Assembly: GCA_050942615.1 (NCBI GenBank)
Contig: JBMNNQ010000003.1
Location: forward strand, 1 to 58,489
DNA from: Dethiobacteria bacterium
Lineage (GTDB): Bacteria > Bacillota > Dethiobacteria > DTU022 > UBA8154
DNA: 58,489 bases
Direction: 5' to 3'
Position numbers and translations under genes: made by a program. The notes beneath the pieces are model-generated. The model was not told where the DNA came from, ran no database searches, and saw nothing but the letters and a program-made list of their open reading frames with translations. Positions 146-57,658 of this stretch are shown one piece after another (the first letter of the stretch is position 1; every line of letters begins with the position of its first letter).

Positions 146-220
146 TGGTGGGGCTGCAGGGATTTGAACCCTGGGCCTCTTGAATGTGAGTCAAGCGCTC
201 TCCCCCTGAGCTACAGCCCC
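146..220 (-). tRNA. tRNA-Val (anticodon CAC)
   Basis: The reverse complement folds by hand into a cloverleaf: acceptor GGGGCTG/CAGCCCC, D arm GCTC-AGGGGGA-GAGC, anticodon arm CTTGA-CTCACAT-TCAAG, T arm CAGGG-TTCAAAT-CCCTG. Discriminator A and an encoded CCA follow. The anticodon CAC lies at 186-188. Confidence 0.9.
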
Positions 221-10856: not shown

Positions 10857-11185
10857 GTTAATTATATTAATTTTCTCCAAAAAAACGACGATCTCCTTCT
10901 TTTCAGAAAAAACAGGCCAAGTTTCTTTTTTAACACGCAAGAGAGCAGGGGCACCGCAGTCGGCTTCATAAATATTTTTCATGCCGGCCGGGTAAGTAAT
11001 GGTCTATATTTTATATTTTTATAAAAAACGGGAATTAAAATGAAGGTATAAAAATACAACCGGTGCAAAACGGGGGGGAAAGCCGGCTGCAGCATAAAGA
11101 AAAAATTGACCTCCAGCCTTGCGGCATAAGTAGTAATTATTTTATAACAGACTAGAACACGGAGACCAAAGGCCGCACTGGACGA

Positions 11186-11217
11186 AAACAAAAAAACCCT
11201 TCCGCAGCACGGAGGGG
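11186..11217 (-). terminator. Rho-independent terminator ending the three-gene islet
   Basis: The minus strand reads CCCCTCCG-tgctg-CGGAAGGG (one bulge) followed by TTTTTTTGTTT. It lies about 40 nt after the stop of the SecB-like gene. Confidence 0.6.
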
Positions 11218-11253
11218 TAAAAAACTGGGCTTTTTTAGTCAAACTACCTAAAC

Positions 11254-11676
11254 CTATTGTTGTTCCTTATGGTGACTATCCTTCATCAAGGCCACAATAT
11301 TTATTGTAGGTAAAATAATAGGCGGTTCACTGCCCTTATTGGATAAATCAGTTACCAGGCTCCTTAAATAAGGAAACAAAATTGCTACCGCATTGGTCTT
11401 ATAAAACGACATTATTTCATCCTCAGTCAATTCGGATGCCCCTTGAATAACAAACAACCCCATTATTTCTGCTTTTATATATAAAGACGATTTTTTACAA
11501 TTATAGTCTCCCAACTCTATTCCAAGTTTGATAACAGCTTCACACTTATCGGGTGCAACATTGACATTAAAAAATAAGTTCGGTGTTTCTATTATGTCCT
11601 CATTTTCAAAAAATGGGTTAAATTTATATACAGATTCAATAACATGATATTCTTTAAATTGTAGCGATGCTTTCAT
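11254..11676 (-). CDS. SecB-fold chaperone (candidate C component of a toxin-antitoxin-chaperone module)
   Basis: 140-aa ORF with RBS AGGGGT. The segment LYIKAEIMGLFVIQG...TNAVAILFPYLRSLVTDLSNKGSEPPIILPTINIVALM aligns by eye with E. coli SecB FLCEVQQAGIFSIAG...[37 protein letters not shown]. The gene is AT-rich. Confidence 0.75.
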   Translation of the reverse strand: MKASLQFKEYHVIESVYKFNPFFENEDIIETPNLFFNVNVAPDKCEAVIKLGIELGDYNCKKSSLYIKAEIMGLFVIQGASELTEDEIMSFYKTNAVAILFPYLRSLVTDLSNKGSEPPIILPTINIVALMKDSHHKEQQ

Positions 11677-11693
11677 TGTTACCCCTAACCTTT

Positions 11694-11999
11694 TTATGCC
11701 GCATTAACATTATAAAAACTATATTTTTTATATTTTTCAGTGATATCAATAGAACTGTGTTTTTTTACAACAATCACAATTTCATCCGCAATTTCCTGTA
11801 GTAAACTGTATTCTCCATTAACATAGTTTTTTCCTTTTAAAGAATTCAGTTCAGGAAATAAATCCTTGATACCCAGAAATATGCTATCCCCGCCATTGTT
11901 AATTTTAATGCCGGGTGAAGGCACATTAAAGGACACTTTAAAACCAAAATCCCTCGCCAGTTCCTTAGCCTTTAGCCTATCAACCGTAAAATCAAACAT
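11694..11999 (-). CDS. Small protein of unknown family, candidate antitoxin with an aromatic/basic C-terminal tail
   Basis: 101-aa ORF. Its ATG abuts the upstream stop (TAAATG), with GAGGAAG as the SD inside the upstream gene. No HTH motif was recognised. The tail reads IVIVVKKHSSIDITEKYKKYSFYNVNAA. The role is inferred from position only. Confidence 0.45.
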   Translation of the reverse strand: MFDFTVDRLKAKELARDFGFKVSFNVPSPGIKINNGGDSIFLGIKDLFPELNSLKGKNYVNGEYSLLQEIADEIVIVVKKHSSIDITEKYKKYSFYNVNAA

Positions 12000-12611
12000 T
12001 TAGGCTTCCTCACATTCTTTTATGATTATATTATCTATAACCCTTGCTTTTGCTACATCCCTGATAATTTTTATGTTTTCAAAATTTATTACATTACAAT
12101 TCCTTACACAAACCTGCACGCCGTTTAATAGCAAATTCATATTACTTAAAACCGTATTGTCAAAAAAACTTGGCACATGAAATGTTCTTTGAATTACCCA
12201 TATATCAGGCGGCAGCATCGACATAATAAAACACCTGATTTTTGCTTTTATGTCCCGTATATTTTTTCCAGTTGAATCATATTCTATACATATTCCTTGC
12301 AACTTTAAAGAATCAATAAAGTTTGATAAAGTAATGAGCCCTTCCCTTGAGTCAAGATTTAAAAAATTTAAGTCTCCAACTTTAATGATCGTTTCTACAA
12401 CAGCAGGTTTTTGCCCCCTTAAAAACAAGTTTTTAATTTTATATTTTGCCCAACAAAAAGCCTGCCGTTCGTCTTCCCTAAAAAAATAAACTCCTTGACC
12501 TAACCAATGGTCCTCCCTCATTTTATTGGTAAAGGCCTTGCTTTGCTTGATATTTAAAGCATTATGTTCGGTGGTTCCATGAAAGACATAAAAACAATTT
12601 CTTCTTGTCAT
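12000..12611 (-). CDS. DUF3990-like / ADP-ribosyltransferase-fold protein (candidate toxin)
   Basis: 203-aa ORF with RBS GGTGAT. N-terminal CFYVFHGTTEHNALNI...WLGQGVYFFREDERQAFCWA and a later NGVQVCVRN fit an H-Y-[E/D/Q] arrangement (H11, Y42, Q166) as in DUF3990/ART-clan proteins. This was read by eye, not searched. Confidence 0.55.
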   Translation of the reverse strand: MTRRNCFYVFHGTTEHNALNIKQSKAFTNKMREDHWLGQGVYFFREDERQAFCWAKYKIKNLFLRGQKPAVVETIIKVGDLNFLNLDSREGLITLSNFIDSLKLQGICIEYDSTGKNIRDIKAKIRCFIMSMLPPDIWVIQRTFHVPSFFDNTVLSNMNLLLNGVQVCVRNCNVINFENIKIIRDVAKARVIDNIIIKECEEA

Positions 12612-12666
12612 ACTATCACCAAAAATATAAAATACTTAAATTTAGTATATCAGTATTATAGAGGAT

Positions 12667-12695
12667 ATTGTAGTATAATTTTTACTTATTTGTAA
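12667..12695 (-). promoter_or_regulatory. Putative sigma-A promoter of the three-gene islet
   Basis: The minus strand reads TTACAA (12695-12690), a 17-nt spacer, then TACAAT (12672-12667). This lies about 55 nt upstream of the ATG at 12611. Confidence 0.4.
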
Positions 12696-12733
12696 TTTTA
12701 TGCCTCGCCCTTGATATTTTACAGCGTTCCTTT

Positions 12734-14214: not shown

Positions 14215-14844
14215 CTAAACTTCAGGTATATTTTGCAGATCGCTGCGCACATCGCAACACTTGATTTGTTTTTTAAACAACGGGTTTACAGCAGGGTTTC
14301 TATCCCCGAAGGTTTCCATAATTTCGTCCAGGATTTTCCTCCTGTCCAAACCTTCTTCTTCTCTTTTTTTAATCTGCTTATATACGCCAAAAACCGGCGA
14401 AGGCCCGATTTCTGATGAAAAATGCCCGATTCCCTGATTCCAGGCCAACAGCGAAAACAGTTCGTCCAATTCCTGCACAGTAACTCCTAAGGAATAGGCC
14501 TTAATCAGCTCTCTGGTTGCCTGCCTGAACCGGGAAGCACCCATGGCGTTGCTCATGGAAAGCAGCAGCTTGGTTTTTAAATCTAGGGCGGCGTCTTCTT
14601 TGCCCCAGATTAATTCCCAAAAATCGACAACCGTTCCTGCCAAGTAGTCATCGATCACCTTATAATTTACAATTGCCGTCGGTTTAAAGGGCATATCCGC
14701 CCCGCTTTCATAGGTGATTGTTTTCATTTCCGTCCGATAGAAATAAACCCTGTACTCATGATCTGAAACCTTTTCAGTCAGGTGTTCAAACCCTAAATCC
14801 TGCAGCGCTGAATATAAGGGTTTGGGTTCAAAACTTTGTACCAC
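14215..14844 (-). CDS. Hypothetical protein with a C-terminal AhpD/carboxymuconolactone-decarboxylase-like domain
   Basis: 209-aa ORF with a GTG start. The segment DLKTKLLLSMSNAMGASRFRQATRELIKAYSLGVTVQELDELFSLLAWNQG resembles the CMD/AhpD-like helical domain but lacks a CxxC motif. Confidence 0.35.
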   Translation of the reverse strand: MVQSFEPKPLYSALQDLGFEHLTEKVSDHEYRVYFYRTEMKTITYESGADMPFKPTAIVNYKVIDDYLAGTVVDFWELIWGKEDAALDLKTKLLLSMSNAMGASRFRQATRELIKAYSLGVTVQELDELFSLLAWNQGIGHFSSEIGPSPVFGVYKQIKKREEEGLDRRKILDEIMETFGDRNPAVNPLFKKQIKCCDVRSDLQNIPEV

Positions 14845-15278
14845 ACAGATACCGTTCTACAAATTCACCTGCTGCGCCCGGTGTAAAATCATGGGTAAAA
14901 AATTACCTGTTAATTTCCGAACATCAATTACGGCAAACGTTAACTTTTTATCTTCCCAGTTTGCTGTCAAGGTTTTCTCCCCCGTTCTTGGTAAGTCTCC
15001 ATACTTAATAATACTACAGAATTAACTAAAACCCTTTCATGCTCACCGTTAATTTTGTATTTAAAGGGTATGCACAGAAAACAAATAGATACTGCAATTA
15101 ATAGAAGCAAACTGCGCGGATAATAATAATCAGCAGTTCCATTAGCAAGCCCCCCGGCCCCGTTAATATTGTTCCATCCAATAAATGCAACTAACATTTT
15201 TCTGCAGTTAACTATATAATATTGATTATATAATCTGGATTATTACGGTCAACCATACGCAAAAACGGAGGAAGAAGT

Positions 15279-16886
15279 TTGAAAACCCTTTTTTTGTTGA
15301 TCGTTTGTTCATTTTTAGCCGGGGTGGCCATCAGCTATGTGCCTTTTTACCGGCAGCTTAAATTCCGCCTGCTTGCCGACTTCTTCAAAGGTGCGGTTGT
15401 GGCCTTGGCGGCACTTTTTTTGGTGGGGACACCCATGGCCTTGGTGACGGCCGGCTGCGGGTTGCTCTGCGCCACCCGCTGGTTCCCTTACCCCCGTGAA
15501 CATGAAAGAAAAATATACGGGTTGGCAGCCGGGCTGCTGCTCTTTATGGCCCCCGCTCTTTTCCTGCTGCTGCTGTTGTGGTGCCTGGCCCTGGGCCTGT
15601 TGCGGCATTCCTTTACAGAACAGCTCCTTGCTTCATTTTATCTGATGCTGCCGCTGCTGCTGTTTTTCACCGGCAAAAGCGATGTCTATATTCTTTTCAG
15701 CATCGTGCTTTTCAGCATTGTCCTGCTGGACAATTTTGAACAACTGGAAACCGGACTGCAGCAGATTTTAAACACCGGCCTGGAAAAACCCGGCGTTACG
15801 GCCACCCCCGGAGGGAAAACAAGCCCGGAAACAGGAACAGGCGCAAACACAACCTACGGGGCAATAAGGACAGTAAAGGCAACCCCTGGGGGTGAAATTG
15901 CCGGCAGCAGTCGAAAAAGAACAGGCTGCGCCGGTGAGCATACCAGCCTGGACCCCGCCCCCTGTAACAAAACCGGCGCCATGTTTTTAGCAGGCATAAA
16001 TTTTTTAGCAAGTAAAATTAGGGCTAAATACTGTTTGGTGAAGAAAAGCAGAAACAGGGCCGGCCGTTGCCAAACAAGCTGCCCCGGGACGGCCCCTGCA
16101 AACTGTTCCGGCAACAGTTCCGGTAACACCCCCTTGTTTTTCCGCCAACGCCTGCGTCGCCTGGCCTATGTTTTAGCCGCATTTTTACTGGTTTTTACTT
16201 TTTTTCTGAACCGTTACGTCTACCGGGGTTTTGGTATGCAGGTGGAACTTTTTCGTAAGGGGGCTGCGGACGCCCGCGTTGTAGCCCTCACTTTTGACGA
16301 TGGCCCTGACCCCCGCTTTACCCCGGATATTTTAAAGACCCTTGCTGCAGAAGATGTGAAGGCCACCTTTTTCATGGTGGGCAAACATGCAGAAAAATAC
16401 CCCCAGCTGGCCCGCCAGATAGCTGCGGCAGGACATGAAATTGGCAACCACACCTACAACCACGTCAATCTGCTGCAGATCCCTACGGAACGCATGGTTA
16501 TGGAAATAGAGCGTGGGGAAGAAGCTGTTTTTAATGCCACCCGCCAGCGCCCCTCCTTGTTCCGGCCCCCCCGGGGGCTCTACGATGCTAATTTGCTCAA
16601 GGAAACAAAGGACAGGGGCTATACCGTTATCCTCTGGTCGCTTTCCTCCCGGGATTGGCTGGAAATGCGCCCCCAGGATATTTCCCAGACGATCCTGCAA
16701 AAAGTTTCCCCCGGGGAAATTATTCTTTTCCATGACAGCGGCAACCTGATCCGCGCTGAAGGAGGGGATCGGCTGCCGACAGTACGTTCACTGCAAACAA
16801 TCATCCGGGGCTTAAAAAAAGAAGGTTATGACTTTGTGACCATCACTGAACTGCTTATTCTTTCCGGGTTAAGCGGTGATCTTTAG
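15279..16886 (+). CDS. Polysaccharide deacetylase (NodB homology domain) fused to an N-terminal multi-pass membrane region via a low-complexity linker
   Basis: 535-aa ORF with a TTG start behind GGAGGAAG. C-terminal NodB motifs: LTFDDGPDPRFTPDIL, ATFFMVG, GHEIGNHTYNH, LFRPPRG. The N-terminal 160 aa are hydrophobic. Residues about 165-300 are low complexity. Confidence 0.75.
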   Translation: MKTLFLLIVCSFLAGVAISYVPFYRQLKFRLLADFFKGAVVALAALFLVGTPMALVTAGCGLLCATRWFPYPREHERKIYGLAAGLLLFMAPALFLLLLLWCLALGLLRHSFTEQLLASFYLMLPLLLFFTGKSDVYILFSIVLFSIVLLDNFEQLETGLQQILNTGLEKPGVTATPGGKTSPETGTGANTTYGAIRTVKATPGGEIAGSSRKRTGCAGEHTSLDPAPCNKTGAMFLAGINFLASKIRAKYCLVKKSRNRAGRCQTSCPGTAPANCSGNSSGNTPLFFRQRLRRLAYVLAAFLLVFTFFLNRYVYRGFGMQVELFRKGAADARVVALTFDDGPDPRFTPDILKTLAAEDVKATFFMVGKHAEKYPQLARQIAAAGHEIGNHTYNHVNLLQIPTERMVMEIERGEEAVFNATRQRPSLFRPPRGLYDANLLKETKDRGYTVILWSLSSRDWLEMRPQDISQTILQKVSPGEIILFHDSGNLIRAEGGDRLPTVRSLQTIIRGLKKEGYDFVTITELLILSGLSGDL

Positions 16887-52967: not shown

Positions 52968-53127
52968 CTCTTATCTCCCAGGACGACAGCACAAACAGTC
53001 GGCCCGAGGGAATTGGCACCGGACAACCCGCTGCAGACGTGTTTACAAATATATTGTTCAACAACGCTGAAACGGGTTCGGTTGCCGGGGTTCATTGAGC
53101 CCATCTCTCCCCCACTCTGGATAAGAG
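52968..53127 (-). promoter_or_regulatory. SAM-I (S-box) riboswitch aptamer upstream of metK
   Basis: The minus strand reads CTCTTATCCAGAGTGGGGGAGAGATGGGCTCAATGAACCCCGGCAACC...GGTGCCAATTCC...GGGAGATAAGAG. This matches the S-box consensus blocks (CUUAUCaAGAG, GGAGGGA-like, GGCAACC, GGUGCcAAUUCC, AGAUAAG). Confidence 0.92.
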
Positions 53128-57582: not shown

Positions 57583-57658
57583 GCCGGCATAGCTCAATTG
57601 GTAGAGCAGCGGAATCGTAATCCGCATGTTGGGGGTTCAAGTCCTCTTGCCGGCTCCA
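57583..57658 (+). tRNA. tRNA-Thr (anticodon CGT)
   Basis: Hand fold: acceptor GCCGGCA/TGCCGGC, D arm GCTC-AATTGGTA-GAGC, anticodon arm GCGGA-ATCGTAA-TCCGC, T arm GGGGG-TTCAAGT-CCTCT (two G-U pairs). Discriminator T and an encoded CCA follow. Confidence 0.85.

Follow-up and report, generated by a model that had tools for sequence, protein, structure and literature searches.

A predicted CmdTAC-family toxin-antitoxin-chaperone module in the genome of an anaerobic, spore-forming member of the Bacillota

Among the toxin-antitoxin-chaperone (TAC) systems, the closest described counterpart of the locus analyzed here is CmdTAC, the system formerly known as PD-T4-9 (PMC9519451). The CmdT toxin is an ADP-ribosyltransferase (ART) of the diphtheria-toxin class, with an H-Y-[E/D/Q] triad and the catalytic tyrosine Y41, that modifies adenines at their N6 position within GA dinucleotides of single-stranded RNA; its folding depends on CmdA, which also neutralizes it, and CmdA, which ends in Ala-Ala, is degraded by ClpXP unless it is protected by the SecB-like chaperone CmdC, the component that is titrated by the major capsid protein of phage T4 (PMC11618068; 10.1101/2024.02.24.581848). 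Two independent CmdT proteins of Escherichia coli both target mRNA (PMC11618068; 10.1101/2024.02.24.581848), and both E. coli CmdTAC systems tested so far defend against phage (PMC9519451; 10.1101/2024.02.24.581848). Under the published calling rule, a CmdTAC locus consists of a CmdT homologue, a second open reading frame (ORF) and a SecB-like third gene (PMC9519451); the sequence of the second ORF may vary, and homology to CmdA is not demanded (PMC9519451, PMC11618068). Here we examine a module at positions 11,186-12,695 of a 58,489-nucleotide stretch of the genome of a Dethiobacteria bacterium (GCA_050942615.1, contig JBMNNQ010000003.1, positions 1 to 58,489; hereinafter, the window), in which, in agreement with this rule, a gene for a CmdT homologue is followed by a further ORF and then by a SecB-like gene. 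We consider it likely, with a probability of roughly 80%, that the module was acquired horizontally, belongs to the CmdTAC family and acts by abortive infection as its E. coli counterparts do.

The module comprises three minus-strand ORFs, for proteins of 203, 101 and 140 amino acids (aa), exactly as described in a first-pass annotation prepared from the letters of the window (Table 1). The stop codon of gene 1 abuts the start codon of gene 2 (TAA followed directly by ATG, at 12000/11999), with GAGGA located inside gene 1 immediately 5' of that start, and the gap between genes 2 and 3 is 17 nt long and contains AGGGG. The motifs that had been quoted for the product of gene 1, namely FHGT (H11), GQGVYFF (Y42), AFCWA and QVCV (Q166), are all found in its translation. 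The many homologues of the first and third proteins, the two significant positional homologues of the middle protein and the conserved gene order jointly indicate that these are three real genes rather than chance ORFs.

The predicted toxin matches the PADLOC model PD-T4-9_A (CmdT; PDLC04068) with E = 4.7e-6 over residues 16-184, that is, over nearly its full length, and the PHROG family phrog_14664 with E = 9e-23. An authentic CmdTAC locus for comparison was found via the cmdT-cmdA junction rebuilt from published primers: it belongs to E. coli N2250 (NZ_CP189474.1, 3125353-3126566), where it lies in a P2-like prophage between DinI-like and portal genes, and its toxin, antitoxin and chaperone are detected by PADLOC with E values of 4e-97, 3e-38 and 7e-61, respectively. 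Compared with this CmdT, the window toxin yields a BLASTP E value of 1e-6 (with WLGQGVYFF aligned to WLTQGYYFW), and in a profile comparison (hhalign) the N-terminal ~75 columns align with a probability of 89% and E = 2.3e-6. In a joint alignment, H11, L37, Q39, G40, Y42 and C168 are invariant in 47 of the 47 distinct toxins and Q166 is kept in 46; all seven residues are present in E. coli CmdT. Y42 of the window toxin pairs with Y43 of the RefSeq CmdT, which equals Y41 of CmdT from strain ECOR22, the validated catalytic tyrosine (PMC11618068), because primer CD7 places the GTG start of the ECOR22 gene two codons into the RefSeq model. By this alignment, the window toxin keeps the conserved H-Y-Q triad as H11/Y42/Q166.

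As a side observation on the reference locus, the 70-nt cmdT-cmdA junction probe matched 3 of 5,426 complete E. coli genomes, and RefSeq labels the toxin and antitoxin of strain N2250 'hypothetical protein' and the chaperone 'protein-export chaperone SecB', so that the prototype CmdTAC is itself mis- or unannotated in reference genomes.

The AlphaFold2 model of the toxin, built from an alignment of 19 homologues, has a pLDDT of 86.7 and a pTM of 0.81, and its credible Foldseek neighbours in the Protein Data Bank (PDB) are all ART folds: NatT, diphtheria toxin, exotoxin A (1AER), PARP4, the tankyrases, ParT and Tpt1. In the Foldseek viral library the model has five matches at E <= 1e-3, and the matches include ART-PolyVal-like and polyvalent-protein domains. 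Comparison of the toxin-family sequence profile with solved structures retrieved none, and in Pfam the toxin has a PARP match only, below threshold. The first-pass annotation had assigned the protein to the ART clan in its DUF3990-like form. The first half of this assignment is supported by the CmdT models, the H-Y-Q triad and the ART-like predicted fold; the second half has to be given up inasmuch as the window toxin has no match to PF13151 at E <= 1. Weak matches to DUF3990 were obtained for only 4 of the 19 close homologues (best E = 4.6e-4), some homologues carry the UniRef name DUF3990, and Pfam counts this family among the members of its ART clan (PMC7955679); the relationship holds at the superfamily or clan level only. 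With DUF3990 and the other toxins of the ART clan, such as exotoxin A, diphtheria toxin, ParT, DarT and NatT, the window toxin shares the predicted superfamily fold, the logic of the H-Y-[E/D/Q] core and weak matches in profile and structure searches, but it scores below the DUF3990 and PARP thresholds, and those families are not linked to chaperones.

The third protein belongs to the SecB family, as had been proposed from a short segment quoted in alignment with E. coli SecB. It matches Pfam SecB (PF02556) with E = 1.9e-9 and 38.0 bits, against a gathering cut-off of 26, but its best profile match is PD-T4-9_C (CmdC) of PADLOC, with E = 7.8e-17; BLASTP against E. coli CmdC gives 3e-8, and the PHROG match is phrog_21664 with E = 4e-20. 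Among the SecB sequences with solved structures, those of Haemophilus influenzae (1FX3), Mycobacterium tuberculosis (Rv1957) and E. coli are matched with E values of 8e-5, 6e-3 and 3e-2, respectively, and the alignment with SecB passes through the quoted segment AVAILFPYLRSLV. To our knowledge, the Bacillota generally lack a SecB export pathway.

The middle protein matches nothing in Pfam, NCBIfam, PADLOC (including PD-T4-9_B) or PHROGs. A word-based homologue search with this protein retrieved only itself; homologues were recovered by position, from the middle ORFs of related loci, and the positional equivalents in Bacillus nitratireducens and Bacillus methanolicus are significantly similar to it (E = 6e-11 and 1.6e-5, respectively). 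Alignments of this family reveal a conserved N-terminal 'LAxxxGh' motif. The window protein terminates in NVNAA, with four aromatic residues among its last 15. Of the 40 distinct middle proteins, 38 have -AA, -AC or -VA as their terminal residues, compared with 5 of 418 background ORFs (those of at least 150 aa from the same loci), an enrichment that is inflated by relatedness. By analogy, such a tail would fit the combination of an aromatic chaperone-addiction region and an Ala-Ala ClpXP degron established by experiment for CmdA and HigA; in CmdA, the terminal Ala-Ala has been demonstrated to determine degradation by ClpXP (10.1101/2024.02.24.581848; PMC11618068).

A separate observation on these tails is that 27 of the 40 distinct proteins in the CmdA position, from Lachnospiraceae, Blautia, Veillonella and others, end in -[IV]AC rather than -AA. 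Ahead of these termini stands a conserved motif of aromatic and acidic residues (e.g., AYYLQEDFAIAC), and the tails could represent a variant of the degron or of the chaperone-addiction region; we found no description of this tail type in the literature.

The toxin has ~20 close homologues with 33-51% identity in Bacillaceae, a Syntrophomonadaceae metagenome-assembled genome (MAG) and metagenomes, and an exhaustive search with the toxin-family profile retrieved 2,748 cluster representatives at E <= 1e-3, of which 880 are at E <= 1e-10 and 59 at E <= 1e-30. We surveyed 60 loci from species-representative genomes that contain the motif HWLGQG[VIA]Y; these come from Bacilli, Clostridia (many of them Lachnospiraceae), Veillonella, Bacteroidota and others. 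Toxin, small ORF and SecB-like gene occur in this order in 40 of the 60, with median lengths of 195, 79 and 132 aa; five loci have a toxin and a SecB-like gene with no middle ORF called, four are fragmentary and in the remaining 11, some of which run into contig ends, no SecB-like gene was detected. Together with the CmdT and CmdC matches, this conservation sustains the earlier claim of a T-A-C order and a CmdTAC-like composition. In B. methanolicus PB1 (locus L001, 1-3627), an operon for proteins of 217, 98 and 148 aa, the last of them SecB-like, is located directly 3' of genes for a TerB-domain protein, a BrxC/BrxD-like ATPase and a DEAD/Cas3-like helicase and also adjoins a transposase gene, a neighbourhood that looks like a defence island; the operon of the Syntrophomonadaceae MAG (189, 115 and 139 aa, the last SecB-like) adjoins genes for an integrase and ParE. 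Other relatives are found on plasmids of Enterococcus and Rhizobium, in satellite phages of Streptococcus and in PHROG families 14664 and 21664.

Closest to the window module is the Bacillota HWLGQGVYFFRED clade, which includes B. methanolicus PB1, B. nitratireducens, Oceanobacillus, a Syntrophomonadaceae MAG and others. Its toxins are 41-51% identical to that of the window and are encoded in the same T-A-C operon, 59 cluster representatives are matched at E <= 1e-30, the window antitoxin is homologous to the partners from B. nitratireducens and B. methanolicus, and in databases the toxins are labelled only as hypothetical or DUF3990. In contrast to the window toxin, many toxins of the clade possess a Lys/Arg-rich C-terminal tail.

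Two further observations concern toxin architecture. The Lys/Arg-rich extension (e.g., KRTKRNKRHLNID; columns ~235-262 of the homologue alignment) is present in most Bacillaceae homologues and is missing from both the window and the Syntrophomonadaceae toxins; it might serve in RNA binding or in localisation. In a Planctomycetota MAG (locus L044, 510-2771), a CmdT-like domain forms part of an ORF of 753 aa, and no SecB-like gene lies close by; this may be a toxin domain fused into a larger protein.

Set beside CmdTAC of E. coli (ECOR22, O112ab:H26), the window module shows the same T-A-C order and similar sizes (192/77/129 aa vs 203/101/140 aa), the H-Y-Q triad with the catalytic tyrosine in WLxQGxYF and the Q-x-C motif, a small partner that ends in Ala-Ala, a SecB-like third gene and, for both modules, a mobile or foreign context. 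The differences are that the window toxin resembles CmdT mainly in the N-terminal third, with 38% identity across 45 aa, that the window antitoxin has no detectable sequence similarity to CmdA, and that the module comes from the MAG of an anaerobic, spore-forming member of the Bacillota and not from a P2-like prophage of E. coli; moreover, the window module has no adjacent mobile-element genes. The canonical TAC systems (HigBA-Rv1957 of M. tuberculosis; MqsRAC and HigBAC of E. coli) resemble it in the SecB-like third gene, with the similarity to Rv1957 given above, and in the C-terminal chaperone-addiction region of the antitoxin, which is putative for the window protein. However, their toxins, HigB and MqsR, are RNases and their antitoxins have recognizable DNA-binding folds, whereas the window toxin is a predicted ART that is encoded before the antitoxin.

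The assignment to the CmdTAC family is carried by the homology of the first and third proteins to CmdT and CmdC, the conserved catalytic triad, the conserved T-A-C gene order, the tail that ends in Ala-Ala and a nucleotide composition foreign to the surroundings (Table 1); enzymatic activity, RNA target, ClpXP dependence, phage trigger and defence phenotype we infer from the E. coli systems. By this analogy, the 203-aa predicted ART would use NAD+ to ADP-ribosylate, most likely, single-stranded mRNA, which would bring translation to a halt. Synthesis of the 101-aa protein would be coupled to that of the toxin at the level of translation, and this protein would aid toxin folding and keep the toxin neutralized; its aromatic-rich Ala-Ala tail would act as a chaperone-addiction and ClpXP-degron element, such that the protein would survive only while the tetrameric SecB-like 140-aa chaperone holds this tail. 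During infection, a newly made phage structural protein would titrate the chaperone, ClpXP would then degrade the antitoxin, and the freed toxin would stop translation before progeny form. The first-pass annotation had named non-toxicity of the toxin expressed alone as a refuting result; this test is invalid because CmdT needs CmdA to fold, and E. coli CmdT alone is indeed non-toxic (PMC11618068, PMC11445053).

Several observations weigh against the assignment of the window module to a CmdTAC system that works as in E. coli. The similarity of the toxin to CmdT is weak, with profile significance confined to the N-terminal ~75 residues. Its PADLOC match is at the edge of detection, and for the relative from B. 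methanolicus PADLOC finds nothing at E <= 0.01; given this marginal and failed detection, the HWLGQGVYFFRED clade is under-annotated. No Foldseek match of the toxin model in the PDB reaches E <= 1e-3 (all have E >= 0.02), and the TM-scores are 0.3-0.44. The published fit of CmdT, for which 1AER is also the match cited, is similarly loose (r.m.s.d. 6.9 A; PMC11618068), and because of the weak statistics and this equally loose precedent we count the ART fold of the toxin as consistent but not independently proven. The middle protein lacks detectable similarity to E. coli CmdA (no match to PD-T4-9_B; BLASTP E = 0.37), and its single-sequence AlphaFold2 model is uninformative (pLDDT 37). The neighbours of the module include no defence or mobile-element genes, and the contigs of sister strains, reached via Mfd, end at the flavodiiron protein gene and allow no empty-site comparison. 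Furthermore, we found no Gram-positive homologue with a tested substrate, trigger or phenotype in the literature.

The most probable alternative retains the architecture and regulation of CmdTAC and holds that the Bacillota toxin clade modifies another substrate, for which structured RNA, DNA, protein or another RNA sequence context are candidates, or that the chaperone senses a phage protein other than the capsid protein. The similarity to CmdT lies mainly in the NAD-binding N-terminal region, and the C-terminal half of the toxin aligns with CmdT only via the Q-x-C motif; in addition, the clade has invariant residues of its own (H35, D47, R89, C127, P134 and R170). As for the trigger, the chaperones of TAC systems vary in this respect, HigC, for example, sensing the tail protein gpV of phage lambda (10.1101/2024.02.24.581848). 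However, the window toxin and CmdT have in common both WLxQGxYF around the catalytic tyrosine and Q-x-C, and the mRNA specificity of the two independent E. coli CmdT proteins also argues against a change of substrate. On the whole we regard this alternative as unlikely.

We find it improbable that the module is a selfish addiction or stabilisation cassette, a plain toxin-antitoxin system that depends on its chaperone and takes no part in the phage defence of its host. Its position alone among housekeeping and cell-wall genes without defence neighbours could suggest this, as could the fact that the first TAC systems to be described, those of M. tuberculosis, were not linked to defence (background cited in 10.1101/2024.02.24.581848). 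This reading is opposed by the phage defence provided by both tested E. coli systems and the presence of relatives in defence islands, hypervariable regions of prophages, satellite phages and PHROG families.

The genes around the module encode wall proteins with SLH and Cu_amine_oxidN1 domains, a flavodiiron protein, GerM and Mfd, which fits the chromosome of an anaerobic spore-former and not a defence island. The flanks contain no direct or inverted repeats suggestive of an insertion mechanism, only AT-rich chance matches. Among 80 metagenomic loci that carry relatives of the flavodiiron protein (63-81% identity), none has the toxin, antitoxin or chaperone gene, and the wall-protein neighbour is missing as well; these loci say no more than that the module does not occur as a conserved neighbour. 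Searches found no exact record of the 852-aa wall protein and, for the 395-aa flavodiiron protein, the same strain only, with clusters that have no other members.

It is highly improbable that the module is an inactive remnant. Nothing points to this directly; the expression signals, however, are statistically indistinguishable from background. The promoter that had been proposed as TTACAA-17-TACAAT is present as an alternative register of the promoter-like site in Table 1 (TTACAA at 12695-12690 and TACAAT at 12672-12667, with a 17-nt spacer) and is a plausible promoter; however, the AT-rich stretch contains eight such sites vs 7.0 +/- 2.7 expected from shuffles, so that statistical support for it is lacking. 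Similarly, the proposed T-tailed terminator exists as a hairpin with a T-run, but its stability is ordinary (centroid -12.3 kcal/mol, z = -0.8). The three ORFs, by contrast, are intact and full-length relative to their homologues and retain all the invariant residues of the family, and several metagenome samples, independent of one another, have yielded the module unchanged and in an unchanged context.

A housekeeping SecB export chaperone beside two unrelated hypothetical genes is scarcely credible as an explanation of gene 3 and was rejected, since, for all the significance of its Pfam and NCBIfam SecB E values, the protein reaches only 17-37 bits with the seven NCBIfam housekeeping SecB equivalogs (cut-offs 103-277; best 36.7 vs 223), that is, 5- to 10-fold under every cut-off, scores higher with the CmdC model, and is encoded by a gene of foreign GC content that is tightly linked to toxin and antitoxin homologues in dozens of genomes. 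The general lack of a SecB export pathway in the Bacillota, noted above, also speaks against it.

Table 1. Features of the module and its surroundings (window coordinates)
Feature	Position	Strand	Description
cmdT-like toxin gene	12611..12000	-	203 aa; predicted diphtheria-toxin-type ADP-ribosyltransferase; H11/Y42/Q166
cmdA-like antitoxin/folding-partner gene	11999..11694	-	101 aa; putative; C-terminus aromatic-rich, ends in Ala-Ala (...YKKYSFYNVNAA)
cmdC-like SecB-family chaperone gene	11676..11254	-	140 aa; AGGGG Shine-Dalgarno upstream
Promoter-like site 5' of toxin gene	12667..12696	-	ATTACA-18-TACAAT (consensus scan)
Terminator-like hairpin CCCUCCG...CGGAAGGG + U-run	~11218-11189	-	3' of gene 3
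Low-GC island with module	11000..12720	.	~30-36% GC (module ~31%) vs 44-49% (~46%) in flanks

Some additional features of the window and of related contigs are recorded here. An 87-aa ORF with a TTG start (10979-11242, minus strand) overlaps the terminator-like hairpin and the region 5' of the gene for the 852-aa wall protein and is most likely spurious. In the sister-strain contigs (L072, 18807-22287; L074, 9207-12693), the flanking proteins are 95-97% identical to those of the window, and a block that consists of a 195-aa ORF, an N6/N4 DNA methyltransferase gene, a 228-aa ORF and a Spore_YtfJ gene sits between the polysaccharide deacetylase and DUF2249-like genes; this block is missing from the window (~14844-15279), so that the neighbourhood varies between strains. 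The window also contains a SAM riboswitch (S-box leader; Rfam RF00162, 67.7 bits) at 52968-53127 on the minus strand and, near its two ends, genes for tRNA-Val(CAC) (146-220, minus strand) and tRNA-Thr(CGT) (57583-57658, plus strand).

With respect to novelty, the suggestion that a system of this kind would be uncharacterised does not stand: the publications on PD-T4-9/CmdTAC date from 2022 and 2024 and already mention that Gram-positive species have homologues, which makes the window module a putative, divergent Bacillota member of a known system. The finding opens no new question and reveals no new mechanism. By analogy, it would extend mRNA ADP-ribosylation released by chaperone titration, a known anti-phage mechanism, to an uncultured anaerobic spore-former, and it brings to light a sizeable Bacillota toxin clade that is barely detected by the current models for defence annotation, which could be of use for building better hidden Markov models of defence systems and for the choice of a Gram-positive CmdTAC for experiments. 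The HWLGQGVYFFRED clade lies at or beyond the detection limit of these models, and its antitoxin is unrelated in sequence to CmdA. There is some chance, which we rate as low, that the clade's substrate specificity or phage trigger differs from that of E. coli CmdTAC; it may, for example, recognize a different RNA motif, modify a target other than mRNA or sense a structural protein of siphoviruses. If so, Gram-positive anaerobes would possess, in this clade, a branch of ART-based TAC immunity with a function of its own.

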